Source of the DNA: Rickettsiales bacterium
Lineage (GTDB): Bacteria; Pseudomonadota; Alphaproteobacteria; Rickettsiales; UBA8987
DNA: 61,816 nucleotides
NCBI GenBank assembly: GCA_033762595.1
Contig: JANRLM010000049.1
Coordinates: 1 to 61,816 of the forward strand
Reading direction: 5' to 3'
Positions within the stretch are counted from its first letter, which is position 1. Each line of letters begins with the position of its first letter. The notes under the pieces are model-generated. The model was not told where the DNA came from and did not search any database. It saw only the letters and a program-made list of their open reading frames with translations. Shown here in pieces: positions 5,442-47,123 of this stretch. A program made the translations under genes and the position numbers.

Positions 5442-5506
5442 CTAAAATTAAATTAAATTATTAATGGGAGTTTTCACTATCCATAGATTTTAACCACTTA
5501 ACCGCT

Positions 5507-5610: not shown

Positions 5611-5703
5611 CTTAGGTGAAAATACAGCAGAAATTTATTAAAATCTATAGATACTAACACTCTTTTAATAATTTCATTTTACCCTGAATTAAATTAATTT
5701 GAT

Positions 5704-27639: not shown

Positions 27640-27682
27640 AAGGTGGAAAAACATCAGAAAATATATTAAATCATTGATATAT

Positions 27683-28900
27683 ATGAGGATTATTACTAAC
27701 AACTCGGAAGCTAAACTAGTTGATTTTGCCAATTCCAGCAGGCATTCGCAATCTGATAACTACGCCGTTCACTTTAGGCTTAGTAAGCTAACAGAAACTT
27801 ATAAGAATGATTTTCACATAAAAATTGCTGTAAATATATTGAATGATATTTTCCGCGAAGAAATTGGCGAAATTGTTAGAATGTCAAATCTTGATGTATT
27901 TCTGCTTTATCGTGGGGCTGATAAATTGCTACTTAATAAGGCTATATTTCAGTTGAGGTATTTATTTTTTGATGATCCGCTTTCAAACCTTCCAGATGGC
28001 AGAGAAAATAAAGAATTCTGTGAAACTTATGATTTGAATTTTCAGTGGCAACAATTTTCAAGCCTAGCCTCCAAAATTATGTCTGAGGCTATGCTTAAAG
28101 AGCTTGGCAAAGACACGCTAACTCTCAGTGAAGAAAATTCCATTAAACAACCAGCGGTTAAATTATTTCCAGATATTGAAAAAGAAATTGCCGAAACAAA
28201 ATTAGATTCCGCCATCAGAAAACAACCAGTTTGCACTATTAAAGATTTAATAAATCCAATTCCAAAGCCATTATATAATGAAATTTATATAAATATTCCC
28301 TTTTTGCAAAGAATGCTTGATACAAATTTCAAGCTGACTTCAAATAAATGGCTATTTAATTTTTTGACTGAAAAATTAGATGAAAAAGTTTTGGAAATTG
28401 TAAGCACCAACCCAGAGAGCTTTCTTTACATGCCAATAAGCTTGAACTTAAATTTAAGCTCTGTGCTATCAAAAGATTTTGCAGAATTTAGTGAGATTGC
28501 AAAAGATTTCAAAAGCCAGCTTGTTATTGAAATAACTGCATCAGATGTGCTTTCTGATATTTATTCATTTCAAAAAGTAAAAGATTTATCTCAGAAAAGA
28601 AATCATAAAATATGTTTAGATGGGCTTAATAATGAGAGTTTTCTTCATATAAACCGCAAAAAACTAGGGTTTGACCTTGTAAAGTTGCAATGGAATGCTG
28701 ATGTTAAAGGGGATTTATTCTCTAAAAAAGAAAATCAACCCGTCCGAGATGCGATAGCAGATGCAGGTGCGAATCGCTTGATTTTATGTCGCTGTGATGA
28801 CATTCACGCTATAGAATATGGCCACGCTTTAGGAATTAGCTTGTTTCAAGGTAGATATCCTGATAGATTACTTAATCCACAAAGTATGGTTATTAATTAG
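27683..28900 (+). CDS. degenerate EAL-like domain protein (catalytic residues mostly replaced)
   Basis: The start was moved to the first ATG (the ORF track begins at a TTG at 27674). The C-terminal half aligns by eye to the EAL fold. IEITAS stands for ELTES, LDGLNNESF for DDFGTGYSS, VKLQ for (L)KID, and CRCDD...GISLFQGRY for AEGVE...QGY. Confidence 0.5.
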   Translation: MRIITNNSEAKLVDFANSSRHSQSDNYAVHFRLSKLTETYKNDFHIKIAVNILNDIFREEIGEIVRMSNLDVFLLYRGADKLLLNKAIFQLRYLFFDDPLSNLPDGRENKEFCETYDLNFQWQQFSSLASKIMSEAMLKELGKDTLTLSEENSIKQPAVKLFPDIEKEIAETKLDSAIRKQPVCTIKDLINPIPKPLYNEIYINIPFLQRMLDTNFKLTSNKWLFNFLTEKLDEKVLEIVSTNPESFLYMPISLNLNLSSVLSKDFAEFSEIAKDFKSQLVIEITASDVLSDIYSFQKVKDLSQKRNHKICLDGLNNESFLHINRKKLGFDLVKLQWNADVKGDLFSKKENQPVRDAIADAGANRLILCRCDDIHAIEYGHALGISLFQGRYPDRLLNPQSMVIN

Positions 28901-28905
28901 GGGTT

Positions 28906-29778
28906 ATGTATTTAAGAAAAGGAAATCTCAAATTTGTTATTGAACAAAATAACCCTGAAAAATCTCTCAAAATTTCGCAATTCAGAAAATCTGTAGATGA
29001 TAGAAGGGGCGGGGATTATTTCGGATATGACGAAGATGCAATAGTTGGTAAAGATTTTAGAATTTTACTGCCTGAGGATATAAAAGAAATTTTTGATGAA
29101 AACCTTGATTTTGCCTTTGATGGCAATGATCTTAAAGATATTGTAAGCCACATAATTACATTCAAAATAAAAAATGCAGGCGGTGAAGTTATTGATATGA
29201 ACGCCTTTGCTGAGCGTGATATTTCTACAGAAGAAAAACAGCAGTTTAACCTGATTTTAGAGAAAAAATATTTCCTTCGGGATAAAGTAAAATCAATCCT
29301 GCAAGAATTATCACACACTAAAAATGCTATTGATGAACACACAAAATTAATAAATCACGATGTGTTTGTTCATACCCTTGATGAAATAATGGATTATCTA
29401 TATGAAATTAAGGTTGAATCGGTGCTTTTAATTTTATCAGTGGAAGGTTTTTCAAATATTAGAAAAAGCGATGGCAAGGATAAATCAGATGAAATAATTT
29501 CAAAAATTGCTGAAGTTATAAGTTCAAACTTTAGAGCTAGAGATGTAGTTTCCTATTTAGGATTAGGCAAATTTGCGGTTGCAATGCTTAGAACCTTTGA
29601 TGATGAAGTTGTTTATCCCCTTAAAAGGCTTGAATCTAATCTTAAACTTGCAGACATCTTTAAATATGATATATCTATTAATGCTCGCTTCGAGAGGATA
29701 GATGTTGGTCTTAAAGCTGCTGATATGATTGATTTAGTTAAAGCATCGCAAGTTAAGCTTACCATAAATAAAAATTGA
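28906..29778 (+). CDS. PAS-like plus degenerate GGDEF domain protein (GLGKF in place of GGDEF)
   Basis: 290 aa. The N-terminal YFGYDEDAIVGKDFRILLPE is PAS-like. The C-terminal LLILSVEGFSNIRKSDGKDKSDEIISKIAEVISSNFRARDVVSYLGLGKFAVAML follows the GGDEF domain layout with the active site replaced. Confidence 0.55.
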   Translation: MYLRKGNLKFVIEQNNPEKSLKISQFRKSVDDRRGGDYFGYDEDAIVGKDFRILLPEDIKEIFDENLDFAFDGNDLKDIVSHIITFKIKNAGGEVIDMNAFAERDISTEEKQQFNLILEKKYFLRDKVKSILQELSHTKNAIDEHTKLINHDVFVHTLDEIMDYLYEIKVESVLLILSVEGFSNIRKSDGKDKSDEIISKIAEVISSNFRARDVVSYLGLGKFAVAMLRTFDDEVVYPLKRLESNLKLADIFKYDISINARFERIDVGLKAADMIDLVKASQVKLTINKN

Positions 29779-29781
29779 TTC

Positions 29782-30630
29782 ATGCTATTCAAAAAAGAAA
29801 AACAACAGCAACAATCTAACAAGCAAATTCCTGATTATGGGCAGAAGATTTTTAAGGCTGCCGCTTTTGTTTTTCTTATTTTTGTTTTATATGAAACATA
29901 TTCTAATGACTTAAAAAATAGGCTTTCAAATTCTAGCGAAGATGAAATTCCTGAACAAGTTTCGCAGGCTAGGATTAATCAAAAAGTGCAAGAAGCCTTT
30001 GATAAAATGTATGAAAATCCTGAATATAAGAAAATCCAAGATTTTGTTAATTACATTGATAAAAACATAGATAAAAACAACGGCACTGCACTTAAAACTC
30101 CCTCGGGTTACTTGTTATTTCTACCTTTTGATTCTGTTTTTAATAGCAACGCTATAAACAGTAAGATTGTTATAAAATCTGAAGAAACTGAATTTTATGT
30201 TGATTATAAAATTACTCATAAGGCAATCGAAGCCCCAAATTCAAACATTGTTCAGCAAGCTAGAAATAGCGATATTCAAGAGTTAAAAGAAAATATTGAA
30301 AAGACTGAAAAAAACATTTTATTAGAAGAAATAGCTAAGAAAAATGGCAAAGTTATTAATCTTATAGATAAAGATTTACCAAAGCCAGTTGCATATATAG
30401 AAAATAATCACTCAGCAAAAGCTAGTAATTTACCAAAATCTCTGGCTCAAAAAATTGAAACTAAACCAACAGATAATCCAGAAGAAAAGAAATTCAGAAA
30501 AGTTGCTGAGAAGCAAAAAAATAAACCTGTTGCTACTAGTAAAAAGCAGGAAACTCTCCCTTCGGATAATAATATAAAGCCTGTCTCGGAAGCAATAATA
30601 AAAAAGCCAATAGATTTGAAATTGGATTAA
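29782..30630 (+). CDS. membrane-anchored Lys/Glu-rich protein, function unknown
   Basis: 282 aa with a single N-terminal TM segment (AAAFVFLIFVLY) and a low-complexity lysine-rich tail. It starts 3 nt after the previous gene, so it is in the same operon. Confidence 0.4.
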   Translation: MLFKKEKQQQQSNKQIPDYGQKIFKAAAFVFLIFVLYETYSNDLKNRLSNSSEDEIPEQVSQARINQKVQEAFDKMYENPEYKKIQDFVNYIDKNIDKNNGTALKTPSGYLLFLPFDSVFNSNAINSKIVIKSEETEFYVDYKITHKAIEAPNSNIVQQARNSDIQELKENIEKTEKNILLEEIAKKNGKVINLIDKDLPKPVAYIENNHSAKASNLPKSLAQKIETKPTDNPEEKKFRKVAEKQKNKPVATSKKQETLPSDNNIKPVSEAIIKKPIDLKLD

Positions 30631-30791: not shown

Positions 30792-33299
30792 ATGGTAGGT
30801 ATTAACTCAAATCTTGCTGCCGCGTCGGCATCAAGAAATCTAACTAGTGCAGGTTCTGTTGCATCTAGTTCAATCGCAAAACTCTCAAGTGGTAGCAGAA
30901 TTATTAAAGCATCTGATGACGTAGCTGGTCTATCCATCGGTACTTCAATAAGCACAACTGTTAAATCTTTAGAGATTGCGAAACTCAACACTGAGCAAGC
31001 TAGAAGCGTTCTTCAGATCGCTGATGGTGCGCTTAAACAAATCGGCGATATTTTATCTCGTCAAAAGGCTCTTGCAGTTCAATCAAACTCTGGTTCACTT
31101 GGTAACACTCAAAGGGCATTCTTAAACCAAGAGTTCTCGGCTCTTAAATCAGAGATTGATCGTATCGTTACCACGACTTCATTTAACGGAATTACTCTAT
31201 TAAATGGCTCTATTGCTGGTGATGCAAGCGTTCAAGTTTCTGGTCCACTTAATGCTGGTATTATCCAAGATCAAGATGTTTCAGTTTCTGCAACTGTATC
31301 TTCTTACAATGCTGTTGGAACACCTGGTTCAAGCGTTACAGCGGTGCAATCGCTTGCTTCATTTGATGATACTTCAGTTCAGCAAACTGGTTTTGGTACA
31401 TTTAGTGCAGTTTACTTCAATGAAAATGGAACGGGCGCTGAATCAGTAGTTGTTCAAACAATCATTGGTGATAAAACTTATATTGGAACAATCACTGCTT
31501 CTGGTAATGGTGGTAACATTGCCGCTGCAACTGATGTTGTGTTTACTGCTAATGATGGCTCAGGCTCAGCTTTCACTTTAAGGTTAGCTGCTGGAACTGG
31601 TTCTATCAACACTTCTGGTGCTGCAGATACTTATTTAGGCACATTAACAACTGATTTATCTGCTGTTGAATTGCAACAAACAAGAGTTGTTTCTGGCTTA
31701 AATTCAGTTACTGGAACAAGGCTTGGTGGTTTAACAATTGCTTCTGACGTTACAATTCGTGGTAAAACTTTTGATACTACAAACAACGATTTTGGAACGA
31801 TTGGTCAGTTCACAGCAGTTGCTGGTGCAGGCTCTGCTAATTACATCACTGTAACTTTAAATGGTAAAACATTCAGTGCTTCTGATATTGGTGGCGCAAA
31901 TGATACTTTGGCTGCTGCTGATGGCACTATAACTTTAATTGGTCGTGATGCAATTGGTGCTGATAACAATGAAAGGCTAATCATTAGCGTTGCAAACATT
32001 GGCTCTAACACCGTTGATTTAACTGATGCTGAGCAAGTTGCTGAGTTAGAATCAGCTCTTAACCAATTATTTGGCGTAGGTAACACTGGTGATGCTTACA
32101 CTACAGTTGGCACAGCTGATTCAACTTATGTTTCTGCGGTTTCTGTTTCTGAATTCAATGACGCATCTTTCCAAGGTGAAGGTTTTGGAACTTTTGAAAT
32201 AGTATCATTTGATGAAAATGGTTCAAACGCGGAAGATGTTGTTATTAGAACTCAAATCGGTGATAAAGTATATGTAAGTGCTAATTTAGTTGCTTCAGGT
32301 AATGGTGGTAATATTGCGGCTCAGGATCTAGAATTCACAGCTACTGATGGTTCTGGTTCTAAATTCAGCTTAAGTCTTGCTGCTGTGACTGGTGCATTAA
32401 ATACATCAACTACTGCTGCAACTTATGCTTCTAATTTAACCACAGCTTTAGCTAATGTTGATATTTATCAGATTAGAACAGTTAACAGCGTAACAGCTGC
32501 TAATATTAACGACACAGTTCTTGACGGCTTAACTGCTTCATCTGTAACTATCAGATCTAATAATTTTGATATTACTAATACTGATTTCGGTGATATTGGA
32601 AACTTTGTTGGTGTCGCTGGTGTTGGTGCTAACAATTCACTTTCTGTAATTGTTAATGGCACAACTTTCAGTGCAACTGATTTAGGTGGTGCTAATGATA
32701 TCCTATCTTCAGCTGATCAAACAATTACTTTAATTGGTCGTGATGCTGCTGGTAATGATAACAATCAAAGGATCACTATTGATATCACTGGTTTAACTGG
32801 TTCTATCAACCTTGAAAATGCTGATGAAGTTAAAGCATTAACAAATGCTTTAGATTCTTACTTTGGTGTAGGTGCATCTGGTTCTGGTGGTTTATCATTC
32901 CAAGTTGGTTCTGCATTATCTGATAAAATTGCTATCTCAATTAAAGATGTATCAACTAGCAAGATTTATCTTGATAATGATGGTGTTGCACAAACTCTAT
33001 CAATTGATACACAAGCTGGTGCACAAACAGCAGTTGAAGCACTAGATAACGCAATATCTTCAGTTATCTCTCGCAGGGCTGATGTTGGTGCTGCAATTTC
33101 AAGATTTGAATTTGCTTCATCTAACATTGAAGTATCAATCGCAAACCAAGATGCTGCTCGTGGTAGCTTCCTTGATGCAAATATAGCAGAAGAATCTACT
33201 AAATTTGCTACAAATCAGGTGAAATTACAGGCTTCTGTATCGGTTCTTGCTCAGGCAAACCAGATACCGCAGTTACTACTAAGACTAGTTCAGCAGTAA
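30792..33299 (+). CDS. fliC: large flagellin (835 aa) with duplicated central domain block
   Basis: A strong RBS (AGGAGG) precedes it. The N-terminal D0/D1 is GINSNLAAASASRNL...KLSSGSRIIKASDDVAGLSIG. The C-terminal D1/D0 is RADVGAAISRFEF...LDANIAEESTKFATNQVKLQASVSVLAQANQIPQ. About 530 residues of Ser/Thr/Gly/Ala-rich insert lie between them. Confidence 0.9.
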   Translation: MVGINSNLAAASASRNLTSAGSVASSSIAKLSSGSRIIKASDDVAGLSIGTSISTTVKSLEIAKLNTEQARSVLQIADGALKQIGDILSRQKALAVQSNSGSLGNTQRAFLNQEFSALKSEIDRIVTTTSFNGITLLNGSIAGDASVQVSGPLNAGIIQDQDVSVSATVSSYNAVGTPGSSVTAVQSLASFDDTSVQQTGFGTFSAVYFNENGTGAESVVVQTIIGDKTYIGTITASGNGGNIAAATDVVFTANDGSGSAFTLRLAAGTGSINTSGAADTYLGTLTTDLSAVELQQTRVVSGLNSVTGTRLGGLTIASDVTIRGKTFDTTNNDFGTIGQFTAVAGAGSANYITVTLNGKTFSASDIGGANDTLAAADGTITLIGRDAIGADNNERLIISVANIGSNTVDLTDAEQVAELESALNQLFGVGNTGDAYTTVGTADSTYVSAVSVSEFNDASFQGEGFGTFEIVSFDENGSNAEDVVIRTQIGDKVYVSANLVASGNGGNIAAQDLEFTATDGSGSKFSLSLAAVTGALNTSTTAATYASNLTTALANVDIYQIRTVNSVTAANINDTVLDGLTASSVTIRSNNFDITNTDFGDIGNFVGVAGVGANNSLSVIVNGTTFSATDLGGANDILSSADQTITLIGRDAAGNDNNQRITIDITGLTGSINLENADEVKALTNALDSYFGVGASGSGGLSFQVGSALSDKIAISIKDVSTSKIYLDNDGVAQTLSIDTQAGAQTAVEALDNAISSVISRRADVGAAISRFEFASSNIEVSIANQDAARGSFLDANIAEESTKFATNQVKLQASVSVLAQANQIPQLLLRLVQQ
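31299..32090 (+). repeat. flagellin internal duplication, unit A (aa 170-433)
   Basis: FDDTSVQQTGFGTF...ASGNGGNIAA...ITLIGRDAIGADNNERL...ALNQLFGVG recurs exactly 264 aa later as FNDASFQGEGFGTF...ASGNGGNIAA...ITLIGRDAAGNDNNQRI...ALDSYFGVG. Confidence 0.85.
32091..32882 (+). repeat. flagellin internal duplication, unit B (aa 434-697)
   Basis: See unit A. About half of the positions are identical by eye. Confidence 0.85.
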
Positions 33300-33391: not shown

Positions 33392-33458
33392 TTCATTAAA
33401 CTATAATTTCTATATTTTATTAAAGGCTATAAACATAAATAAAATTTTGGAGGTCTTT

Positions 33459-33863
33459 ATGGAAGTTAACGGAGTTTCAAATATTCAATCGGTTCAGGTT
33501 TCGCAAAATACTGCACCACAATCAGGGGTTGGAGCTGTTCAAACTATTGAACAAAGGCAAGATTTTACAGCACAAAGAGTTGTAAGTGCTGGTGAAAAAT
33601 CTTCAATTGAACAAAACGCCGCTCGCTCAGAAGAAAGACGCTTTGAAGCTCTAAAGGGCGTTGCAGTTAGCTTAGTTGGTGGTGATAACCCATATTTTAA
33701 TGATTATGTATTTACCATCTATAAAGGCTCTCAATCCAATAGTTTAGATAAATACTATATTCGCTTTACAGATATTTCTACTGGTAGAATTGAAACAAAA
33801 TCTGAAGTGGAAGTTTTCCAGCTTGGTGGTGGTTCTGGAAATGTTGTTAGTGGCTCTTTATAA
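33459..33863 (+). CDS. flaG: FlaG-family flagellar protein
   Basis: The start was moved to the ATG at 33459 (GGAGG RBS 5 nt upstream); the ORF track begins at an upstream TTG. Small size, position between flagellin and fliD, and the C-terminal IRFTDISTGRIETKSEVEV segment fit the FlaG pattern. Confidence 0.55.
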   Translation: MEVNGVSNIQSVQVSQNTAPQSGVGAVQTIEQRQDFTAQRVVSAGEKSSIEQNAARSEERRFEALKGVAVSLVGGDNPYFNDYVFTIYKGSQSNSLDKYYIRFTDISTGRIETKSEVEVFQLGGGSGNVVSGSL

Positions 33864-33880: not shown

Positions 33881-36463
33881 ATGACAACTATAAATTTAGG
33901 AAATATTGTTGGAAATACCATCTCAGGAATAGCTTCTGGCTTGGATAGCACCAAGCTTGTTGAGGAATTATCGGCTCTAAGAAAAAGGCCAATTGATACT
34001 CTAAACCTTCAAATAAAAACAAATCAAACCAAAGTTACTGAATATAGTAGCCTTAATACGAATCTTAATGCGTTAAAAAATTCGGTTAATTTTTTGAGAA
34101 ACCCTACTGGGGTATTAAGCAATTTTTCTAACGCTTTTGAGTATAGATCAGCAAATCTTTTTTCTACCACACTTTCTGCTTCAAGTTATTTATCTGTAAC
34201 CGCAGATCCGGGGGCTCAGATTGGTAATAGCAAAATTGAAATTGGCTCTATTGCAAAAACTTTAGAGCAAAGAACTGGAAGCTTTAACACAAGAAGCCTC
34301 TCTGCAACAACAGCTTCATCAGGGTCATATTTTACTGCTGGAACATTTGAAATTGGCTCAGGTGTTACAAAAGAGGTTACAGGCACAACACTAACTGGCT
34401 TTCAGCTTGCATCAGGTGATTATTCCGTTGAGGGAAGTGCGACAGGTATTCTGACTGCCGCTGGTATAGAAAATTTCAATGTTGTGGGCGGAAGTGGTGG
34501 GTTAGTTGGTCTGCAAGGTTCAATTTCAGGCATTACAGCAAGCTATGATAATACAGCGAATACTACAACACTAAGCTTTACAAAAAATGGGGTTGTATAT
34601 ACATCAAATGCGATTACCTCTGATACCTCAATAAATGCAGGTGCAAATACAGGTGTTGCAAGTGGGGCGGTTATAACTTTTACAGGAAATTCAGGCGGTG
34701 TGAATGAAACATCTTTTACCCTAACACTTGATGAAGATATTATAATTGATGATTTACAATCAAACGCAAACAGCTTCGCAACTAACTTAAATTCAGCTTT
34801 ATCAAATCAAAAAATTTATCAAAGCAGAAGAATAAATAATTTCACTAATGCAGATGTTAAAGCACCATTAACCGGTTTAACATCTTCAAATGTTCGTTTT
34901 ATTTCGGATAATTTTAATACTTCAAATGGGCAATTTGGCACTATCAGAGATTTTCAAGTGCAATATAGCACTGGCTCAAATGGCATAATTTCAGTTAGGG
35001 TGGGTGATGAAATTTTTAGGGCTTCAAACCTTGGCACTACCCTTAATGCAAACCTTACCTTAGAAAGCACAACCAGCGATAAAAAAATTCAGATTAATTT
35101 GGGTGATGCTGGAGTTAGTGCAAATATCTCAACAAGGGAAAATGCTTCCTCTTTAGAAAAAGCACTTGGCTATGCTTTTGGAACTCGTGAATTAGTTGAT
35201 TTTACTATTGTAGAAGGGGAATCCTTAAATGATATAGTTTTCAATCTAAACCAGAAGAAATCACTCACTGGCTTATCCGCATCTATCGTTCAAGTTGGTG
35301 ATTTTGACTTCAGATTATCGTTAAAATCTGCTACAGAAGGCTTGGATAATTCATATCAGTTTTTTGATGCAGGTGGTGTTTTAACTAATGCTTCTATAAC
35401 TACAACACAATCGGCCTCAAATGCAATATTCTCAGTTGATGGTGTAGAAATTGAAAGAAGCACAAATACAATCGCCGATGTTAAAGAAAATGTTACATTC
35501 ACCCTTAGAAATGTTACACCTGATTATGGTGAAATTACTGCTGATAGCATTGATGTTGCAATAAATTTTGATGCAGATTTAGTTACTGAAAGAATCGTTG
35601 CTTTTCTTGATTCTTATAATGCTTTTAGGGTTTATGAAGCAAAGCAAAATGAGCGTGATCCCGCAACTCAAAAATACAAAGATACTGCAATCTTAGGCGG
35701 TGATACAATTCTTAAATCTCTCTCTGATTTACTTTCAATTGAGATTAACAGAATTGTTGATGGCACAACTGATAGCAATTTTAGATCACTTGCTGATATA
35801 GGCATTACACTTAATGATTTTGCTGGTGATGAAACTACTATCGCCACAAATAATATTCTTAATTATGATGAATCTGAGCTAAAAAACGCAATAGCAAATA
35901 ATTTTGAAAAAATTAGAGAAATTTTTGAGTTAAAATCAACTATTAGCTCGTCAAATCTAGTTTTATCTAAATCAAGCAATAGCATTACGCTTAATGAATT
36001 TAAGCTTGATATTGATACTTCAAGAGCTGTAGGCCAGCAAGTTAAACTTCTAAATGCTGATGGCACTGATTATCTTTCAGGGGGTCAAAATGTTTATCTT
36101 TCTTTAAGTGCAGGCATTATTTCTGGTGCAACTGGAACGCCAGTAGCTGGCTTAGAATTTATTTATACTGGTGATGGCACTGATGAAATTTCTGTATCAA
36201 TTACGCAAGGTATCGCAGATAAAATTTATAACATAGCAGATGATTATTTGAAAGATGGTGGAATTTTAGAAGTAACTATTGATGAAATAGTTGCTTCTAA
36301 TGAAGATTTTTCTTCAGAGGTTATCTCACTTGAAGATAGGCTTGAAGATTATGTTAAAAGATTAAGAGATCAATTCGCGGCATTAGAGCAGGCTATCAAT
36401 AGTGCAAACTCAGTTTTATTACTGCTAGAAGCACAAGATAATGTTCGTAATGCTAGGAATTAA
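33881..36463 (+). CDS. fliD: flagellar filament capping protein FliD (enlarged, 860 aa)
   Basis: The N-terminal cap motif is GIASGLDSTKLVEELSALRKRPIDTLNLQI...YSSLNT. A C-terminal coiled coil (EDRLEDYVKRLRDQFAALEQAINSANSVL) is present. Gene order is flaG-fliD-fliS. Confidence 0.85.
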   Translation: MTTINLGNIVGNTISGIASGLDSTKLVEELSALRKRPIDTLNLQIKTNQTKVTEYSSLNTNLNALKNSVNFLRNPTGVLSNFSNAFEYRSANLFSTTLSASSYLSVTADPGAQIGNSKIEIGSIAKTLEQRTGSFNTRSLSATTASSGSYFTAGTFEIGSGVTKEVTGTTLTGFQLASGDYSVEGSATGILTAAGIENFNVVGGSGGLVGLQGSISGITASYDNTANTTTLSFTKNGVVYTSNAITSDTSINAGANTGVASGAVITFTGNSGGVNETSFTLTLDEDIIIDDLQSNANSFATNLNSALSNQKIYQSRRINNFTNADVKAPLTGLTSSNVRFISDNFNTSNGQFGTIRDFQVQYSTGSNGIISVRVGDEIFRASNLGTTLNANLTLESTTSDKKIQINLGDAGVSANISTRENASSLEKALGYAFGTRELVDFTIVEGESLNDIVFNLNQKKSLTGLSASIVQVGDFDFRLSLKSATEGLDNSYQFFDAGGVLTNASITTTQSASNAIFSVDGVEIERSTNTIADVKENVTFTLRNVTPDYGEITADSIDVAINFDADLVTERIVAFLDSYNAFRVYEAKQNERDPATQKYKDTAILGGDTILKSLSDLLSIEINRIVDGTTDSNFRSLADIGITLNDFAGDETTIATNNILNYDESELKNAIANNFEKIREIFELKSTISSSNLVLSKSSNSITLNEFKLDIDTSRAVGQQVKLLNADGTDYLSGGQNVYLSLSAGIISGATGTPVAGLEFIYTGDGTDEISVSITQGIADKIYNIADDYLKDGGILEVTIDEIVASNEDFSSEVISLEDRLEDYVKRLRDQFAALEQAINSANSVLLLLEAQDNVRNARN
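34712..35182 (+). other. FliD segment (aa 278-434) homologous to the duplicated flagellin module
   Basis: FliD NLNSALSNQKIYQSRRINNFT...LTGLTSSNVRFISDNFNTSNGQFGTIRDF...ISVRVGDEIFRASNLG...ENASSLEKALGYAFG aligns with flagellin NLTTALANVDIYQIRTVNSVT...LDGLTASSVTIRSNNFDITNTDFGDIGNF...LSVIVNGTTFSATDLG...ENADEVKALTNALDSYFG. Confidence 0.75.
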
Positions 36464-36518: not shown

Positions 36519-37007
36519 ATGACATACGCTATAAATAATTATAAAAATGCATTCCAAACGCTGGATAAATTCAGCAATCTTTTTTCATTATATGAAGGGG
36601 CAATTGTTAGCCTTATGCAAGCAAAAGATGCGATTATAAATAAAGATGTTCAAACCAGATATAACAAAATTGAAAAAGCATACCTTATAGTTTCTGGGCT
36701 CCGTGATTGTTTGGATATTGAAAATGGTGGTGAGGTTGCGGAAACCTTAAAAGATTGGTATACTGGTGTTTGCTACAGAATTTTAAGCATTAATTCTTCA
36801 GAAGATTTATCTATGTGCGATATGTGCATTAGACACTTAAAAGAAATGAAGGATTCTTGGCTGGAAGCAAAAAACACCTATGAAAAAGAATTAAAAGAAG
36901 ATTCAAAAAGCGGGGCGAATGATGGTTTTTTGCCTGATATTTCGATCTACTTCAACCCTGCAAATATAGGTGCTATGCAAGCCCAACCAATGGCATTCAG
37001 TGTTTAG
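36519..37007 (+). CDS. fliS: flagellin-specific export chaperone FliS
   Basis: 162 aa. LYEGAIVSLMQAKDAI...KAYLIVSGLRDCLDIENGGEVAETLKDWY...W matches the FliS four-helix pattern. It lies downstream of fliD. Confidence 0.8.
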   Translation: MTYAINNYKNAFQTLDKFSNLFSLYEGAIVSLMQAKDAIINKDVQTRYNKIEKAYLIVSGLRDCLDIENGGEVAETLKDWYTGVCYRILSINSSEDLSMCDMCIRHLKEMKDSWLEAKNTYEKELKEDSKSGANDGFLPDISIYFNPANIGAMQAQPMAFSV

Positions 37008-37015: not shown

Positions 37016-38158
37016 CTAAATCGTAGTAAAATCATCAGCGTCAAAAGTGAAATTTGAAGTTGTATTAACTTCAATTATTTGACCATCAGGTAAAGTAATT
37101 TCTGATATAGAACCAGTTTTAACAATCACTAAATCGCTGAAGTCAATTCCAGAATTTAGAGCAATTTTATCGCCATTGCGAAAGCCTTTAATAATATCTT
37201 TCTCGCCACTAGCGGTAAAATCAAAGGTGAATATATCATTTCCACCGCCACCTTCTAAAATATCATTTCCAAGCCCACCGCTGATATTATCATTACCACT
37301 ACTAGCTCTAATATTATCATCACCATCGCCGCCTTTAATAATATCATTTCCACTTCCACCAAAAATGCTATCATTACCAACACCACCATCAATTATATCA
37401 TCGCCACTGCCAGCATAAATTAAATCATCGCCATCATCGCCATTAAGTTCGTCATTCCCTAAGTTACCATACAATTTATCAGCACCATCTCCCCCTGAAA
37501 TCTTATCATCACCAAATCCACCTCTTATATCGTCATCTCCTGCATCACCATTAAGCTCGTCATCGCCTGATTTACCTCTAATAATATCCTCACCATCTCC
37601 ACCAGCTAAAATATCGTTACCTCTACTGCCATAAACTTGGTCATTTCCTGATCCAGCATCCGCAATATTTCCGTTAGCAGAGTTTTGAAAATAAATCCTA
37701 TCATTATCATCTCCACCAAAAACTAAGGCAAGCCCGCCATCTCTAACAAATATTGCATCATCACCAGTTCCACCATCTATTATATCTCCAACAAAATTTG
37801 TGCCGTTATATGAAATAGAAGCACCAGCACTATCAGAAGTGCCAGATCTTAAAGTGTCATTACCGCCATTGCCAATTATAAGGTCATTGCCAGAACCTCC
37901 ATAAACTACATCTCTATTTTCAGAGCCATTAACAACATCATTGCCTTCTCCTGCATCAACATATGAAAATCTTCTAGTGTTTGCGGGATAATTTGTGTTT
38001 GTGAGGTTTATTTCGTCATTGCCAGCTAGAGCATTAATTCTAACTAAAAAGCCACCATTATCAAAAATGTCATCATTTGTTGTCCCGGTTAATCTTTGTC
38101 CGTTTGCAGTTCCAAGAATAGTCATAAGCCCTCGAAATATAGTTGTTAGCCCACCCAA
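37016..38158 (-). CDS. RTX-type calcium-binding repeat protein (probable type I secretion substrate)
   Basis: 380 aa. About 25 consecutive GGxGxDxxx nonapeptide repeats are present, for example GGDGEDIIRGKSGDDELNGDAGDDDIRGGFGDDKISGGDGADKLYG. There is no N-terminal signal peptide. Confidence 0.8.
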   Translation of the reverse strand: MGGLTTIFRGLMTILGTANGQRLTGTTNDDIFDNGGFLVRINALAGNDEINLTNTNYPANTRRFSYVDAGEGNDVVNGSENRDVVYGGSGNDLIIGNGGNDTLRSGTSDSAGASISYNGTNFVGDIIDGGTGDDAIFVRDGGLALVFGGDDNDRIYFQNSANGNIADAGSGNDQVYGSRGNDILAGGDGEDIIRGKSGDDELNGDAGDDDIRGGFGDDKISGGDGADKLYGNLGNDELNGDDGDDLIYAGSGDDIIDGGVGNDSIFGGSGNDIIKGGDGDDNIRASSGNDNISGGLGNDILEGGGGNDIFTFDFTASGEKDIIKGFRNGDKIALNSGIDFSDLVIVKTGSISEITLPDGQIIEVNTTSNFTFDADDFTTI

Positions 38159-38310: not shown

Positions 38311-38386
38311 GATCCCGTAGCTCAGTCGGTAGAGCATCTGACTTTTAATCAGTGGGTCACAAGTTCGAATCTTGTCGGGATCACCA
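38311..38386 (+). tRNA. tRNA-Lys (anticodon UUU), CCA encoded
   Basis: GATCCCG acceptor stem pairs with CGGGATC. The anticodon loop is CTTTTAA, the T-loop is TTCGAAT, and the 3' end is ACCA. Confidence 0.9.
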
Positions 38387-38836: not shown

Positions 38837-39994
38837 GTTATAGCTTCCTTTTCCACACAGATACGCTATAATTGCTTGCAGGAAAAGCACTATCGCTATC
38901 TAGTTATAGCTTCCTTTTCCACACAGATACGCTATAATGTTTCACGATTATTTAAGTCGTGTTCGCAAGTTATAGCTTCCTTTTCCACACAGATACGCTA
39001 TAATATTTATTAAGTCCGTATGGCGGTATAATTGGTTATAGCTTCCTTTTCCACACAGATACGCTATAATAACAACTAACCAAAAGGAGCTTTATGATAA
39101 GTTATAGCTTCCTTTTCCACACAGATACGCTATAATGACGGCACATTAGCAGGCAATCCAGTTTTGGTTATAGCTTCCTTTTCCACACAGATACGCTATA
39201 ATGAAAGTAATTGTAAAGAGCTTGCTTTAGGTGTTATAGCTTCCTTTTCCACACAGATACGCTATAATTAAGCAGTATATCTGGTTGCATCTTGTGCGGT
39301 TATAGCTTCCTTTTCCACACAGATACGCTATAATCAAATTCTGATAGGGATATGGGAAATTGTAGTTATAGCTTCCTTTTCCACACAGATACGCTATAAT
39401 TATGCTCACGGGGTTTTAATTCTCCAGTTTGTTATAGCTTCCTTTTCCACACAGATACGCTATAATTGTGTGAAATATTACAATAAGCCCTATATGGTTA
39501 TAGCTTCCTTTTCCACACAGATACGCTATAATTCATAATTAATACTCATAAAATCCTTTTGTGTTATAGCTTCCTTTTCCACACAGATACGCTATAATTG
39601 TTCCAAAATTATAATCATAAGCAAAGCTGTTATAGCTTCCTTTTCCACACAGATACGCTATAATAACAATATCCTCTATTTCTAGCGATAATAGGTTATA
39701 GCTTCCTTTTCCACACAGATACGCTATAATTATTCAAAGCTATAAATTGCAACCAGAATTGTTATAGCTTCCTTTTCCACACAGATACGCTATAATTAAA
39801 AAGAAGTAGCAGTAATAGTACCTTGGGTTATAGCTTCCTTTTCCACACAGATACGCTATAATCAGAAGCTGAATTTATTAAAAATAACATAGGTTATAGC
39901 TTCCTTTTCCACACAGATACGCTATAATTAGGGGCAGTATATCGCTTTACAAACACTAGTTATAGCTTCCTTTTCCACACAGATACGCTATAAT
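38837..39994 (+). CRISPR. CRISPR array: 18 identical 36-bp repeats and 17 spacers, all 30 bp
   Basis: The repeat GTTATAGCTTCCTTTTCCACACAGATACGCTATAAT occurs at an exact 66-bp period, with starts at 38837, 38903 and so on up to 39959. All 18 copies were read as identical. The repeat resembles the Neisseria type II-C repeat, as recalled from memory, and ends in a perfect TATAAT. Plus-strand transcription is inferred (see findings). Confidence 0.97.
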
Positions 39995-40005
39995 CGGTTT
40001 TGGCT

Positions 40006-40038
40006 AACCCCCTGATAACAAAGGGGGTTTTAGCTTTT
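40006..40038 (+). terminator. rho-independent terminator at the cas-proximal end of the array (plus-strand sense)
   Basis: AACCCCCT-GATAACAA-AGGGGGTT is followed by TTAGCTTTT. The complementary strand has no T-run after the stem. Confidence 0.6.
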
Positions 40039-40052
40039 AGTTAACGAAAAAA

Positions 40053-40358
40053 TTACAATAAAACTAGCTGTTCTTTAGTTACTTTTTCTATTTTTTTTCG
40101 TTCACCAACTAATATTTTAATTCTTGAATATTGCTTATCAGTTACCTCTAAAACCCTTACACTACCCCTAGGCGGTAAATTATTTTTTAATCTTGTGATA
40201 TATTTATCAACTGCATCAAGCCCTTTGCAAATTCTGCAATACACAGAAAATTGAACCATAAAATAACCATCATTAAGAAGGTAATTTCTGAATCTGCTGG
40301 CACATTTTCTATCAAATTTTGTTTCAGTTGGAAGATCAAAGAAAACTAAAATTCTCAT
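40053..40358 (-). CDS. cas2: CRISPR-associated endoribonuclease Cas2
   Basis: The start was trimmed to MRILVFFDLPTETK, the typical type II Cas2 N-terminus (the ORF track starts 8 codons upstream at 40382). About 101 aa, adjacent to cas1 and the array. Confidence 0.9.
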   Translation of the reverse strand: MRILVFFDLPTETKFDRKCASRFRNYLLNDGYFMVQFSVYCRICKGLDAVDKYITRLKNNLPPRGSVRVLEVTDKQYSRIKILVGERKKIEKVTKEQLVLL

Positions 40359-40475
40359 ATATCTTTCCTCTTTAATTTTCATAATTTAACTGATTAAAGA
40401 GGCGAATTTATCAAAATTTTAGCTATTTTCCAAGAAAACACGCCACAAGTAAGCGAAGAAAATGTTTGAATTTTA

Positions 40476-41366
40476 TTAAAAACCTAAATTAGGAAGAATT
40501 AAGAAATTTGTATCTTTCTCTTTTGTTGCCTTCTGAAGGGTTTCAGCGGAGCGTTCAATTGCTTTTAGAATAGTAATTTTTTCACCATCAAACATACAAA
40601 ATTTAGTTAATACAGAAATAAGATTCTGCTTATCTTTCGGCGTTAAATCTGGCTTTTCGTTGTCTTGGAATTCTGTATAAACTAATTCATCTATAAAAGG
40701 TCTAAATGGCTCAATTAAATCATCAGCTAAATTAAAAGAATTTAGATTATTTGAGTGAAAAACGCCAAGAGACGGCATAAAGCCCGAAGAAACAACCGCC
40801 CTTGCAACTGCACCCCTTAAAATTGCGTAGCCATAATTTAGTGCTTTGTTTTTTATATCTTCTTTGCCTCTTTTGAAATTAGCAAATAATTCTTGCCAAT
40901 ATTCTTTTGCTGCTTGAGCTTCATTATTTTCTGAATCTCCAGATAATACAGATTTTGAGAGTTTAAGAAGCCTTATATTTTCGGTTTTATTGATTTTTTT
41001 TATAACCGAAAATTGATTGTAAATTTTTTGTTCAATAATTTTTTGCCATATTCTTTTTTTGAAAGGCTCAGACCAATTAATCTGCAAGTTAAAGATTTCA
41101 GTATATCTGCTATGCTTATGAAATGGAAGGAATATACCGCTTGGTAGATGGCTTTTATCTGTTATAAATAAAGCAATTCCATTATCTGCAATTGCTTGTA
41201 ATAAATTTGCAGAAAAGCTAATTTCGCTATTATCAGCCATTATAATGGCAATATCTTCTAAGGGTATTGTAACCTCTTCCGAGTTATCAGCAGGCTTGTA
41301 TAGAAGCTGATTGCTTTTAAGGCTTAACTTTGATTCTTTTGTAATATTTACAATTCGCCAAGACAA
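40476..41366 (-). CDS. cas1: CRISPR-associated integrase Cas1 (type II)
   Basis: 296 aa. It has MSWRIVNITKESKLSLKSNQL (the type II Cas1 N-terminus) and NYGYAILRGAVARAV...GVFH...FNLADDLIEPFRP motifs. It starts 2 nt after the cas9 stop. Confidence 0.93.
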   Translation of the reverse strand: MSWRIVNITKESKLSLKSNQLLYKPADNSEEVTIPLEDIAIIMADNSEISFSANLLQAIADNGIALFITDKSHLPSGIFLPFHKHSRYTEIFNLQINWSEPFKKRIWQKIIEQKIYNQFSVIKKINKTENIRLLKLSKSVLSGDSENNEAQAAKEYWQELFANFKRGKEDIKNKALNYGYAILRGAVARAVVSSGFMPSLGVFHSNNLNSFNLADDLIEPFRPFIDELVYTEFQDNEKPDLTPKDKQNLISVLTKFCMFDGEKITILKAIERSAETLQKATKEKDTNFLILPNLGF

Positions 41367-41368
41367 AA

Positions 41369-44300
41369 TTATACCTCGCTTTTTTTACCAATTGGCATTC
41401 TTTTTTCACCTTTAACTTCTGAATAATTTCCTAAAATATCAACAGAGTATTTTTTGAAGTTTTTTACCTTAGTTATTGAAAACATTTTTGAATATTCAGT
41501 CCTTAATTCCTTTGTTTTCTTATCCAAAATTTTAAATTTTCCGCTTCTATCTTGGGTTTCTAACTCAAATTGACCGCTACTAGGTTTATATTGAATTATG
41601 TAACCAAAATATTCTTTTTTATCACTTTCAAAGCTAATTAGTTCATCTTTAAATAAATGGAATTTGAAACTAAAAGAATTGTCAATAGAGATGTATTTTT
41701 CCCCTCTTTTGTTTGATAATGCTTTCATTTCATTATTTCGTATTCCTTTAATGTCGGTTTCATAAAATGGAACAATAAAATAAAAGTTGTCTTTTTCAAA
41801 CACATCTAGCCTTCTAACTTCCCCTAAATCAGCCTCTGCATTTCCGCTGTTTTTTAGATTAAGAACAGAATCGGATTCAAAATTCTCTGCAATTTTAAGC
41901 TTTTTAATTTGGTTTCCTATTTCATTATTACTTTTTTTAAGGAATACTTCTTTTTCAAACGCTTTAGTGCAATCAAAATTGTTTTCAGTAAGTAACTTCT
42001 TTATGGTGTTATATACTGAATACTCGCTATCAGAATCTTTAAATATTTTATTAGTTTCATCATAAATTCTGTAAGCTAGCATCTTATTTTCAAAATCTTC
42101 AAGGTTTTTGAAAAAATCTTTTTTAGATGCAATTTGTTTTAAACTGATATTTTTAGTAGTAAAATTAAGACCCCGATTTTTAAATTTTGTAGTTTTAAGG
42201 GTTGCTTTGTGAACCTCTCCACTTGCCTTCCTTCTTGCGGCTCTTGAAACAAAAACTTTTTCCAAATGGAAATTGACTTCATTTCTAAAACTTTCTTTAT
42301 CTCCCCACGGGGTAGGAATGTTAGATTTATTGGCAAATTTCTTAAGCCATTCTTTACCTTTTTCTTCCTTGCGTTTAGTGAAGTTGGATAGATATTGAAC
42401 CATTCCCTGCGTTGATACTGAACAAATTAATGCATCAACGGCGTGGTGTTTATCGCCTTCGGAGCGAACTTTTTCAAAGCCCCAATTATGACGCAAAAAT
42501 GCTGTTAATGAGCCGTTTCTGGTTTGAACCTTGTTTTTTATTTTATCGTTTTCATTTAATTTTAAGAATGATTTTATATATCCCGCTGTATATTTGGTTG
42601 CGTAAGAGGTATCTCTTAAATTCCTCTCTATAAAATCATCTGATTGTTCAAATTTTTCTTTTAAGAGCCTATTCTTTTTTGGTAATGGCAAATTTGATGC
42701 AACTATTCTATCTTTGAAAGCTCGCCATTTATCCGTATCAACACCAAAATATTCAGCAGGAGTTTTATTACCTTTTTGCCTATTTTCGCTAGCAAAGCAT
42801 AAAACCTTATTATTTAAGCTATCATCTAAACATCTGCTGTAGGGGATTATATGGTCTATATCTAAAGAGTTATAGTCTTTTAAGTTTTCAATTTTAATAT
42901 CATTTCCAGAATAAATACATTTTTCATTTTGTTGACGCCATAATCTTAGCCTTAATAAATTTGCTCCTTCATCTGGCTTTAATCCAAGATTTTCACATTC
43001 TTTTCTTGCTTGCTCTTTTTGGTCTTGAAAGGCTTTTTGCCCTTTCTCAATTTTTCTTCTTTCACTATGGGAATTCTTAGCATCTCTAGTAAATTCAATA
43101 TTAATTTGGTCTGGTCTGCCATGCTGTCTAATAACCGCATTTACTACTTTTCTAACTTGACAAACCGCCCTATGAACAACTGGGTTTCTTATAGGTTCAA
43201 AGTTAATTCCTTTTTTCTTAAGCTCTTCAAAAGATGGTAAATAGTCAAACTTTTCTGATTCAGAATTGGGGTTATAGTGTTTGTATCCCGCTAATTCACA
43301 AGCTTTTGAATAATTATAACCTTGTTCTAAAAAGGGATTAATTTTTCTTAATGCCCCTAATGAAAGATGCATATACTTAGAAAATGCTACTGATTTTAAC
43401 TTTTCTGCAATTTCAGGCTTGGTAATTTGTATTAGCTCATTATAAGCTTCCTCTTCTGATTTAGTCGTAGTTAAAATCTCGCAAATTTTATCAAATTTCT
43501 CACTATTATTTAGAAGGGCGTGGAATTCTTCTTTTCCAAATTCCTCGTGAATGTTTTTTATAGTATTGAAGCCTTTTAACTCTATAAATTTTTCTGCTTC
43601 AGGATCTTTCTCTTTGCCTTTGCTATTCTTAAAAGTTGAATAATTTAACCCCTTAAATATTATTGTTTCATCTAGCTTTAGAGCTTTTCTTAGAGTTTTA
43701 TAAGTTAATGTTTTTTGACTTAATGCAACCTCTTTTATAATCCTTTTTTGTTGTTCGGTTAACTCTATTTTTTCAGGGTTATCAATGGTTCTAAGGCTCA
43801 AATTTGAAATTTTAGTTAATAAATTAAAAATTTCTGCTGAGTAAGAATTCCTTGGTGCTCTAAGCTCATCTTTCTCAAAAGTGCATTTACCAATCATTTT
43901 TTCCATCTGCTTTCTATCTATTGCAGATTTTTGGCTAAAGGCTATTTCAATATATTTATTAACAAATTCAGTATTTATAAAATTTGCACCAAGCGAGGCT
44001 TGTTTTTCTAATATTAGTTTTGCTTCTTTCTCGGTTAGGTCTCTAGGAATTGAGTTTATATAAGTTTCAGATTTATTTCTGAACGGCTTATCATTAATAT
44101 TTGTGCGAACCAAAAGCTGAGGAAATGTTAACAAACCTTCCTCTTTAAGTCTCTGAGTATTTTCTCTGATTGCATTTTTTACAAGCCCATCTTCTGATTT
44201 TTTCTTTTCATCTGATATTTCGCCCTTTTGGGGTTTATATCCTCTAAGTTTTGCAATATGATATAGAACCCTAAATAATTCCGCTTCATTTATTCTTCTC

Positions 44301-44665
44301 TCAAGCCCTTCTGCTCTTAGTTGCCAAGGTGATTTTTCATATGCTTGTGGCTTCAAAATATCTTCTATTTGCTCGAGTGATAAAATATTATACTCTGCAA
44401 AAAGTTTTTTGATTTTTTCTAACCTAAATCTCCTTCTTCTTAGCCTTCTTCTTGATGACCTTTTTTCTCTTCTTGGCAAAGCAAGAGACTTACCATCTTT
44501 TGGGTTTTCTGCTTGTGTGAAAGCCCTTACGCCCAAGCCTAATAATTTGCCTTGAATAATTTCTCCAGTTTCTGGATCAATAGTTTGTAACTTATCTTCA
44601 TCAATTTCTGAAATTGCCCAGCCTATTGATGATATTCCTATGTCAAGCCCTAGAATTTTTTTCAT
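41369..44665 (-). CDS. cas9: Cas9 (type II-C size class, ~1098 aa), all nuclease motifs intact
   Basis: The start was trimmed to MKKILGLDIGISSIGWAI (RuvC-I). It has an Arg-rich bridge helix (RREKRSSRRRLRRRRFRLE), RuvC-II (INIEFTRD), HNH (DIDHIIPYSRCLDDSLNNKVLCFASENRQKGNKTP) and RuvC-III (HHAVDALI). No csn2 or cas4 is present, so the subtype is II-C. Confidence 0.95.
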   Translation of the reverse strand: MKKILGLDIGISSIGWAISEIDEDKLQTIDPETGEIIQGKLLGLGVRAFTQAENPKDGKSLALPRREKRSSRRRLRRRRFRLEKIKKLFAEYNILSLEQIEDILKPQAYEKSPWQLRAEGLERRINEAELFRVLYHIAKLRGYKPQKGEISDEKKKSEDGLVKNAIRENTQRLKEEGLLTFPQLLVRTNINDKPFRNKSETYINSIPRDLTEKEAKLILEKQASLGANFINTEFVNKYIEIAFSQKSAIDRKQMEKMIGKCTFEKDELRAPRNSYSAEIFNLLTKISNLSLRTIDNPEKIELTEQQKRIIKEVALSQKTLTYKTLRKALKLDETIIFKGLNYSTFKNSKGKEKDPEAEKFIELKGFNTIKNIHEEFGKEEFHALLNNSEKFDKICEILTTTKSEEEAYNELIQITKPEIAEKLKSVAFSKYMHLSLGALRKINPFLEQGYNYSKACELAGYKHYNPNSESEKFDYLPSFEELKKKGINFEPIRNPVVHRAVCQVRKVVNAVIRQHGRPDQINIEFTRDAKNSHSERRKIEKGQKAFQDQKEQARKECENLGLKPDEGANLLRLRLWRQQNEKCIYSGNDIKIENLKDYNSLDIDHIIPYSRCLDDSLNNKVLCFASENRQKGNKTPAEYFGVDTDKWRAFKDRIVASNLPLPKKNRLLKEKFEQSDDFIERNLRDTSYATKYTAGYIKSFLKLNENDKIKNKVQTRNGSLTAFLRHNWGFEKVRSEGDKHHAVDALICSVSTQGMVQYLSNFTKRKEEKGKEWLKKFANKSNIPTPWGDKESFRNEVNFHLEKVFVSRAARRKASGEVHKATLKTTKFKNRGLNFTTKNISLKQIASKKDFFKNLEDFENKMLAYRIYDETNKIFKDSDSEYSVYNTIKKLLTENNFDCTKAFEKEVFLKKSNNEIGNQIKKLKIAENFESDSVLNLKNSGNAEADLGEVRRLDVFEKDNFYFIVPFYETDIKGIRNNEMKALSNKRGEKYISIDNSFSFKFHLFKDELISFESDKKEYFGYIIQYKPSSGQFELETQDRSGKFKILDKKTKELRTEYSKMFSITKVKNFKKYSVDILGNYSEVKGEKRMPIGKKSEV

Positions 44666-44688
44666 AACTTCAATCTTAGGTTTATTTC

Positions 44689-44716
44689 TTGACATTACTA
44701 AACTTAGAATTATATT
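44689..44716 (+). promoter_or_regulatory. sigma-70-type promoter for the tracrRNA candidate
   Basis: TTGACA (44689-44694), a 16-nt spacer, then TATATT (44711-44716). It is divergent from cas9, and the anti-repeat begins ~17 nt downstream of the -10. Confidence 0.55.
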
Positions 44717-44723
44717 CAATAAT

Positions 44724-46141: not shown

Positions 46142-47122
46142 CTATTTTGTTTTCTTTCTTCTTATCTCAATAAGTTTTTCAGCTTCCGCCTTCTTAATAA
46201 GCCGATTTACCTTGCTTAAATTTAAACCTGTTTCTGTGGCTATATCTCTTTGCTTTAATCCGTCATTGTGAAGTTCAATTACTCTATTTAGCTCTGCATC
46301 TTCTATTTCCGATATTTTCCACCCCCCTTCATTTAGCCAAGCTTCAAAAGGTTTCGCATCATCACCATAAAAACCACGAGATTTTTCATAATGAACTTCA
46401 AATCTTGCACCTTGCTCATTTTGATAATCTTGCGGGCGTTTAAGAGTGATTACGGTATCTAAGATATCCTCCTTCTTTGATGTTCCTCGCTGGCTTCCGC
46501 CTTTATTGGAGTGATGAATAAACAAAACGGATTTGCCTTTACTTCTGAGCTTCAAAACCCACTCTTGAATAAGCTTCCAGCTATCTTCGTCATTTTCTTT
46601 GCCAGACCTGCAAAGTGTAGAAAGATTGTCTAAAATTATTAACTTTGTATCTTCGTGAATATGTTGCTCTATTTTTGCCTGCCCCTCTGGCTCTGATAGA
46701 TTAGGAACGCCAAATTCTTGCATATCTGGCGTGATAATATCCAATGAAATACTTGAAATATCATAATCCTTAATCATTACAGCAAGCCTTTCTTGCAGAA
46801 CATTGGCTGGCATTTCGCCATCAATAAATAAAACCCTGCTTGGTTTTTTGCACTTCCACTTTTCACTAAAAAGTGATTTTCCAGAAGCAACAGCAAGCGC
46901 AATAGATAACGAAACTTGAGTTTTTCCTATTCCACGCAAAGCATAAAGCATCACCAGCCCTTGCGTTGGTATTATTGGCGAAAGCAACATTTCTCTTGGT
47001 GGAATAACTTTTGCCATAAACTCTTTTAAGGCAATGCAAATAACCTCTTTAGTGTCAGTTTTTTCTTTTGGCATAAATTCTTCTGCACTTGAAATTAATT
47101 CTTTTATTTGTGCTATTGTCAT
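46142..47122 (-). CDS. RecA-fold AAA ATPase (AAA_25/RepA-like) with a C-terminal HTH
   Basis: 326 aa with Walker A (LRGIGKTQVSL), Walker B (LIILD) and HHSNKGG. The C-terminal LKQRDIATETGLNLSKVNRLIKKA is HTH-like. It starts 1 nt after the primase stop. Confidence 0.7.
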   Translation of the reverse strand: MTIAQIKELISSAEEFMPKEKTDTKEVICIALKEFMAKVIPPREMLLSPIIPTQGLVMLYALRGIGKTQVSLSIALAVASGKSLFSEKWKCKKPSRVLFIDGEMPANVLQERLAVMIKDYDISSISLDIITPDMQEFGVPNLSEPEGQAKIEQHIHEDTKLIILDNLSTLCRSGKENDEDSWKLIQEWVLKLRSKGKSVLFIHHSNKGGSQRGTSKKEDILDTVITLKRPQDYQNEQGARFEVHYEKSRGFYGDDAKPFEAWLNEGGWKISEIEDAELNRVIELHNDGLKQRDIATETGLNLSKVNRLIKKAEAEKLIEIRRKKTK

Positions 47123-47123
47123 A

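Follow-up and report, generated by a model that had tools for sequence, protein, structure and literature searches.

The filament cap protein FliD and the flagellin FliC of a Rickettsiales bacterium carry a common domain of about 260 residues, which occurs once in the head of the cap and twice, in tandem, in the outer part of the flagellin. Both genes lie in a 61,816-nucleotide stretch of DNA (contig JANRLM010000049.1 of assembly GCA_033762595.1), which is referred to here as the window. The account that we consider likely, with good confidence, is that this module is an accessory domain that was transferred a single time, long ago, between fliC and fliD, has descended vertically in both genes since then and has an accessory role at the flagellar surface. 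What is new here is that the common domain belongs to the canonical architecture of neither protein, can be recognised in sequence across a clade and has been amplified in both genes. The module defines a domain family outside the Pfam and NCBIfam models, with clear boundaries, a two-lobe internal duplication and variable copy number. It provides a sequence-level, clade-wide case for outer domains built by exchange and amplification among neighbouring flagellar genes, an idea that has so far rested mainly on fold comparisons. A known idea, that flagellar genes swap outer domains, is thereby extended, and the system itself is of a familiar kind. The result is incremental, not surprising, because the function is assigned by inference and fold-level precedents exist. 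The family also lends itself naturally to testing whether the head domains of caps interact with the outer domains of filaments.

The fliC–fliD–fliS locus

The genes fliC, fliD and fliS follow one another in the window (Table 1), an order that recurs in the related loci L001, L002, L005, L006, L007, L011 and L012. In these same loci, the gap between fliC and fliD holds an ORF of 122–147 aa; the corresponding small ORF of the window has no family match in Pfam or NCBIfam. The product of fliC is identified as a flagellin by the helical Flagellin_N and Flagellin_C ends that Pfam recognises around a variable outer region, and in the window that outer region consists of two tandem modules between the conserved D0/D1 ends. 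FliD belongs to the cap family by both of its Pfam terminal domains, by the cap-like overall structure of its AlphaFold2 (AF2) model and by gene context. A six-frame scan of the window found the module in fliC and fliD only.

Table 1. Genes of the fliC–fliD–fliS locus, module copies and subdivisions of the FliD head in the window
Feature	Position	Strand	Evidence and remarks
fliC, flagellin, 835 aa	30792..33299	+	Pfam Flagellin_N 4-140 (E=8e-29), Flagellin_C 749-832 (E=3e-17)
Flagellin module copy 1, aa 170-433	31299..32090	+	module HMM i-E=3.5e-57
Flagellin module copy 2, aa 434-697	32091..32882	+	module HMM i-E=9.4e-64; best BLASTP partner of FliD
Small ORF, 138 aa, at the usual FlaG position	33447..33863	+	kept in relatives
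fliD, filament cap, 860 aa	33881..36463	+	Pfam FliD_N (PF02465) 19-126 (E=1.2e-14), FliD_C (PF07195) 512-843 (E=1.5e-35)
FliD module, aa 179-440; by profile alignment an insertion in D3 of the head	34415..35200	+	module HMM i-E=2.1e-74
FliD lobe A, aa 211-308	34511..34804	+	five beta-strands and a C-terminal helix (AF2 secondary structure); hhalign
FliD inter-lobe linker, aa 309-350	34805..34930	+	IYQSR and L.GLT..V motifs; BLASTP match
FliD lobe B, aa 351-434	34931..35182	+	hhalign; AF2 secondary structure
Canonical FliD D3, C-terminal half, aa 436-510	35186..35410	+	Flagellin_IN-like beta-alpha-beta-beta unit; similarity to solved FliDs restarts here
fliS, flagellin export chaperone	36519..37007	+	Pfam FliS, E=1.5e-23

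The two flagellin copies, each a unit of 264 residues, are 52% identical (E=7e-80), and the tandem duplication that had been noticed by eye in this protein is thereby borne out. In FliD, the original prediction placed the module at residues 195–434 (positions 34,463–35,182). It does lie there, inside the envelope given in Table 1, and the predicted range was slightly too narrow, with the broader profile extending it to residues 179–440. Lobes A and B of the FliD module are homologous to each other (hhalign probability 96%, E=3e-9), and the module itself is thus an old duplication of a unit of ~85–100 residues, in which some five strands are followed by a terminal helix. The linker between the lobes is the stretch with the highest conservation between FliD and flagellin, and its residues Q314 and R316 are nearly invariant in an alignment of 55 sequences.

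Homology between the FliD and flagellin modules

BLASTP with compositional matrix adjustment aligns FliD 296–385 with FliC 542–632 at 41% identity over 91 residues (E=2e-12) and FliD 162–385 with FliC 122–367 at 27% identity (E=2e-7). Smith–Waterman scores of FliD against the flagellin repeats are 170 and 192, while shuffled sequences have mean scores of ~70–74, a standard deviation of ~11 and a maximum of 131. The resulting z values of 8.8–11.6 hold under global shuffling and also when shuffling is confined to blocks of 20 residues, which preserves local Ser/Thr/Asn/Gly bias, so the similarity is not compositional. The motifs IYQSR, FG.I..F and INGxxY are in register between the FliD and flagellin copies. 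Four motif pairs had been proposed in the original prediction: the first three all fall inside the first BLASTP match, and the fourth (ENASSLEKALGYAFG) lies beyond both matches, yet is aligned by MAFFT. These alignments confirm that FliD ~179–440 is homologous to each flagellin repeat (170–433 and 434–697). The proposal that the cap and the flagellin repeats carry a common module thus holds as genuine homology, and its significance survives correction for composition in both the adjusted BLASTP and the block shuffles. That the similarity is a by-product of the Ser/Thr/Asn/Gly-rich composition of flagellar outer regions has next to no probability and is refuted: both regions are compositionally biased, and word-index searches with the three-copy alignment and with FliD 135–510 each gave 8000 low-complexity candidates and no matches, but the composition-adjusted E value, shuffles that never reach the observed scores, conserved motifs in register and an exhaustive profile search that drew 57 flagellins and FliDs and two unassigned proteins from 1.84 billion (E down to 1e-97) all stand against it.

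Distribution and possible roles of the module

A profile built from the three module copies was used in that exhaustive HMMER search of 1.84 billion representative proteins, which gave 59 clusters at E≤1e-3, a number that falls to 40 at E≤1e-10. Judged by their termini, the 59 clusters comprise 28 flagellins, 29 FliDs and two unassigned, one of which is a fragment and the other a protein without a flagellin or FliD Pfam match. The module has no match in Pfam, NCBIfam or PDB sequences. The Pfam family Flagellin_IN (PF07196) matches none of the three module copies at E values up to 10; a weak match at FliD 438–485 (19.3 bits, below the cut-off of 22.7) lies just past the module, in canonical D3.

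Related loci beyond L001 were gathered by 11 exact-protein look-ups. Both genes are visible in nine loci (the window, L001, L002, L005, L006, L007, L009, L011 and L012); L004, L008 and L010, which were found via flagellin, stand outside this count because no fliD adjoins the flagellin gene or the contig stops. The module is present in both fliC and fliD in nine of nine, which answers in the affirmative the question, raised in the original prediction, of whether it co-occurs in relatives. In every locus fliC and fliD are neighbours and point the same way. Flagellins carry one or two copies per locus, at times beside other outer sequence, and FliDs carry from one to more than three, in proteins of up to 1243 aa. 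The two genes vary in copy number independently of each other: fliC against fliD has two copies versus one in the window, one versus more than three in L002 and one versus more than two in L012. FliD modules are better conserved between taxa than flagellin modules, with cross-taxon scores of 291–766 for FliD copies and of 90–868, mostly below 360, for flagellin copies.

In flagellin the module occupies the outer, hypervariable sequence and in FliD it belongs to the head, in agreement with the surface-region placement in the original prediction. We propose that it would be situated on the filament exterior and, in the cap, on the distal or outer face of the plate, outside the flagellin-insertion machinery (the D0/D1 legs), as part of an accessory surface layer. 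An accessory surface domain on filament and cap head is most likely its nature, and this functional reading is drawn by analogy with the head domains of Pseudomonas aeruginosa FliD, where D2/D3 are dispensable for filament formation and replaceable (PMC8533109), and with the extra domain D4 of Campylobacter jejuni FliD, which is far from the cap cavity (PMC12221982). Candidate roles include adhesion, stabilisation of the outer layer or filament via outer-domain contacts, and surface chemistry or glycan display/glycosylation. In L009 and L012, fliC has glycosyltransferase, Maf and methyltransferase genes as neighbours. The stronger conservation of the FliD module could mean that it does something more specific in the cap than decorate it passively.

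Such a specific role might be that of a like-for-like template or docking partner, in which homotypic contacts of the cap module with the outer domains of newly inserted flagellins guide folding or packing of the outer layer and both genes must retain the domain. The strict co-occurrence in nine of nine loci and the greater conservation of FliD modules are consistent with this, and templating has been raised for P. aeruginosa FliD D3 and FliC D2 (PMC5072837; discussed in PMC8533109). We nevertheless regard it as unlikely: the P. aeruginosa head domains can be dispensed with, copy number in fliD does not follow that in fliC and shared ancestry explains the co-occurrence equally well. There is only a small chance that the cap module contacts the outer domains of identical fold in the top flagellin layer and in this way either anchors the cap to a thick filament clad in outer domains or nucleates the lattice that these domains form. 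If true, homotypic docking would explain why both genes retain the module in every lineage examined and why conservation is stronger in the FliD copy.

Insertion site and predicted structure of the FliD module

Alignment of a FliD-family profile with Salmonella FliD pairs profile positions 20–154 with Salmonella residues 7–127 and positions 445–679 with residues 143–376. Profile positions ~154–445 are left unmatched between Salmonella residues 127 and 143, a segment that we take, from published domain limits, to be head domain D3. In phmmer comparisons with the solved Escherichia coli and Salmonella FliDs, alignment begins at window FliD residues 447–456, and the NCBIfam FliD models pick up again at residue 437. 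The module is therefore extra sequence in the D3 segment, with canonical D2/D3 segments flanking it on both sides, and these profile comparisons indicate that it is an insertion in a loop of D3.

The full-length AF2 model of FliD has a mean pLDDT of 92.7 and a pTM of 0.76, with the module blocks mostly at 93–98, and the module is thus predicted to fold confidently. These values were obtained with the alignment of 55 sequences (FliD relatives and flagellin modules) as input; single-sequence AF2 gave a pLDDT of 33.5. Foldseek searches with the whole model place solved caps at the top (9gnz, 9m67, 6sih and 5h5v; E about 8.6e-19 to 1e-13) and also return the Geovibrio thiophilus flagellin 9au6 (E=2.9e-10). 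From their sequence relationship, the FliD and flagellin modules would have a common fold.

The module could in principle be the plain canonical D2/D3 head fold of FliD, in which case its resemblance to flagellin would reflect the known kinship of FliD, flagellin and FlgK and not a specific common insertion. Likeness of the FliD D3 fold to a flagellin outer domain has been published (PMC5072837), and the Foldseek match of the whole model to G. thiophilus flagellin is in keeping with it. This is quite improbable, however, since canonical D2/D3 segments exist besides the module and around it, the module has no profile similarity to the D2/D3 segments of its own FliD family (hhalign probability 0.1–0.6%) and no more than 29 FliD clusters among all the proteins searched contain it. 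A second FliD insertion (aa ~640–775) likewise has no similarity to the module in hhalign. It is conceivable that the lobes and D3-type domains share a very distant ancestor.

Comparison with known flagellar proteins

Sharing of a module between filament subunit and cap had been thought to be without a described case, which is not so. In P. aeruginosa, head domain 2 (D3) of FliD shares its fold with the outer domain (D2) of the organism's own FliC, with 17% identity and an RMSD of 2.7 Å (Postel et al. 2016, eLife, PMC5072837). The likeness to the present case is that one organism uses a common fold in the head of its cap and in the outer part of its flagellin; in addition, P. aeruginosa D3 is itself a loop insertion in D2 (PMC5072837), as the window module would be in D3. 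The P. aeruginosa relationship is a structural likeness only and concerns canonical D3, whereas the module of the window is detectable by BLAST (41% identity locally) and is an extra two-lobed domain of ~260 aa that is amplified in both proteins.

The second precedent is an outer-domain survey in which D4 of G. thiophilus flagellin is related to FliD D2 and recombination among flagellar genes is proposed (Nat Commun 2024, PMC11532411). There too a flagellin outer domain is kin to a FliD domain, and D5 duplicates D4 (PMC11532411; PDB 9au6). In that case a canonical FliD fold occurs in flagellin and an added FliD copy is not reported (PMC11532411), whereas the domain described here is non-canonical for both proteins, occurs in both across a clade and has no sequence similarity to D2/D3.

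Epsilon-proteobacterial FliDs (C. jejuni D4 and Helicobacter pylori D4–D5; PDB 6sih, 9gsx and 6iwy) resemble the window FliD in their enlarged heads with accessory beta-rich domains beyond D2/D3, and these accessory domains are thought not to be involved in flagellin insertion (PMC12221982). They differ in that sequence homology to the outer domains of the cognate flagellin is not reported for them. In a profile search of the PDB that covered these D4/D5 domains, the best matches of 6sih, 9gsx and 6iwy fall in profile positions 440–680, and no chain matches the module positions below an E value of 0.36. The short Pfam motif Flagellin_IN (PF07196, ~55 aa), which bears the name of flagellin, matches FliD proteins of the module family, and its matches here are confined to proteins of FliD type; it does not match the module.

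Evolutionary history

A neighbour-joining tree of 67 module copies places every one of the 35 FliD copies in a single group. The exact FliD-only split was recovered in 57 of 100 bootstraps and the root of the tree is a midpoint; with this moderate support and a root of this kind, the transfer was probably, not certainly, a single one, and it may have run in either direction. The scores of FliD modules with their own flagellin do not exceed those with foreign flagellins; the window FliD module, for example, reaches 192 with its own flagellin and 223 with that of L007. At the DNA level, repeats between fliC and fliD are limited to matches of ≤37 nt, which is at chance level. The single FliD group, the lack of an excess toward the own flagellin and the lack of a DNA repeat together fit one old transfer and speak against ongoing conversion.

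Continuing gene conversion or recombination between the adjacent genes would keep cap and filament surfaces alike and provide antigenic or functional uniformity. The neighbouring, co-oriented position of fliC and fliD in every locus would favour such exchange. It is nonetheless very improbable, given a FliD–flagellin identity of just 27–41%, inter-gene repeats that nowhere exceed 37 nt, own-genome scores that are not elevated and FliD copies that group with other FliD copies. The suggestion in the original prediction that the module gives cap and filament the same outer surface, with antigenic uniformity, is not supported, for similar reasons: with low identity, no preference for the own flagellin and no DNA repeat, nothing homogenises the two surfaces. 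Its further implication of domain shuffling between adjacent flagellar genes is supported.

Under the preferred account of one old transfer, a unit of ~85–100 residues would have been duplicated to give a two-lobed, beta-rich accessory domain of ~260 residues. This module would then have moved once between neighbouring fliC and fliD genes in an ancestral genome, followed by vertical inheritance in both genes and repeated tandem amplification in each. This genome would have been that of an ancestor of a probably alphaproteobacterial group that contains Rickettsiales. Among the nine loci, L001 comes from an uncultured Rickettsiales MAG, and its FliD is 85% identical to the window FliD and has an identical architecture. 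L002 holds GTA genes and L009 holds ATPaseInh_sub_z, both of which we take to be alphaproteobacterial markers; an alphaproteobacterial origin is thus hinted at for loci other than L001. The GC content of the nine loci ranges from about 33% to 51%.

Variant carriers of the module and a second FliD insertion

Giant FliD proteins of 1125-1243 aa are encoded at three of the related loci (L002, 10001-13732; L006, 10001-13378; L012, 7001-10390) and carry the accessory module in tandem, with 2 to >3 copies, including partial copies that consist of its last ~55 positions. Two proteins recovered in the module-profile search of 1.84 billion representative proteins have the module between atypical ends: P0054 (605 aa) has no Flagellin or FliD match in Pfam, and the sole Pfam end match of P0055 (562 aa) is a weak one to Flagellin_C. 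Each could be a flagellin-like protein that has diverged or that does not belong to a filament. The FliD_C region of the window FliD, in which 235 profile positions are spread over 332 residues, contains a second insertion that Salmonella FliD lacks, at a site between Salmonella residues 376 and 379. No similarity was found between this insertion and the module, to which, judged from sequence, it is unrelated.

Features of the window around and downstream of the flagellar genes
Feature	Position (nt)	Strand	Description
Three genes directly 5' of fliC	27674-30630	+	EAL-like, GGDEF, unmatched
138-aa ORF	33447-33863	+	Between fliC and fliD, usual FlaG position
Second FliD insertion	35900-36210		Beta-rich, within FliD_C region, FliD aa ~683-775
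RTX calcium-binding repeat protein	37016-38158	-	HemolysinCabind, 7 stretches, E=4.5e-40
Type II CRISPR-Cas locus	38837-44719	- (genes)	
CRISPR array	38837-39994		~18 copies of 36-nt repeat, 66-nt period
Cas1	40476-41366	-	
Cas9	41369-44719	-	1116 aa; HNH_4, RuvC_III, Cas9_RuvC, Cas9_a
AAA_25/HTH protein and primase-like protein	46142-48056	-	

Genes adjoining the flagellar genes

Of the trio upstream of the window fliC, one gene encodes a degenerate EAL-like protein (24.4 bits, under the cut-off), the next a GGDEF protein and the last a product without a family match. ORFs of ~400, 290 and 142-158 aa occur at the equivalent place, after rpmG and before fliC, in related loci L007 and L008, with GGDEF recorded among them in L007 only. 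The trio and these same-position ORFs are a hint that flagellin expression is linked to c-di-GMP. Immediately 5' of module-bearing flagellins, locus L012 encodes Maf, a GT41 glycosyltransferase and methyltransferases (1-4550) and locus L009 a GT1 glycosyltransferase (4331-6067), which are candidate flagellin modification genes; no modification genes of glycosyltransferase, Maf or methyltransferase type were seen beside fliC in the window. The ORF between fliC and fliD matched no Pfam or NCBIfam model, and an ORF of 122-147 aa is kept in this position in seven related loci. Directly downstream of fliS lies the RTX protein gene, and HemolysinCabind proteins are also encoded near fliD in L012 and L013.

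CRISPR-Cas and replication-like genes

The type II CRISPR-Cas locus, whose array (repeat GTTATAGCTTCCTTTTCCACACAGATACGCTATAAT) is adjoined by tRNA-Lys (38311-38386), would be notable if the host is Rickettsiales-like. Flanked by this locus and a tRNA-Pro/tRNA-Thr pair are the AAA_25/HTH gene and the primase-like gene, the latter encoding DUF7146, Toprim and a zinc ribbon; both look like genes that serve the replication of plasmids or mobile elements.
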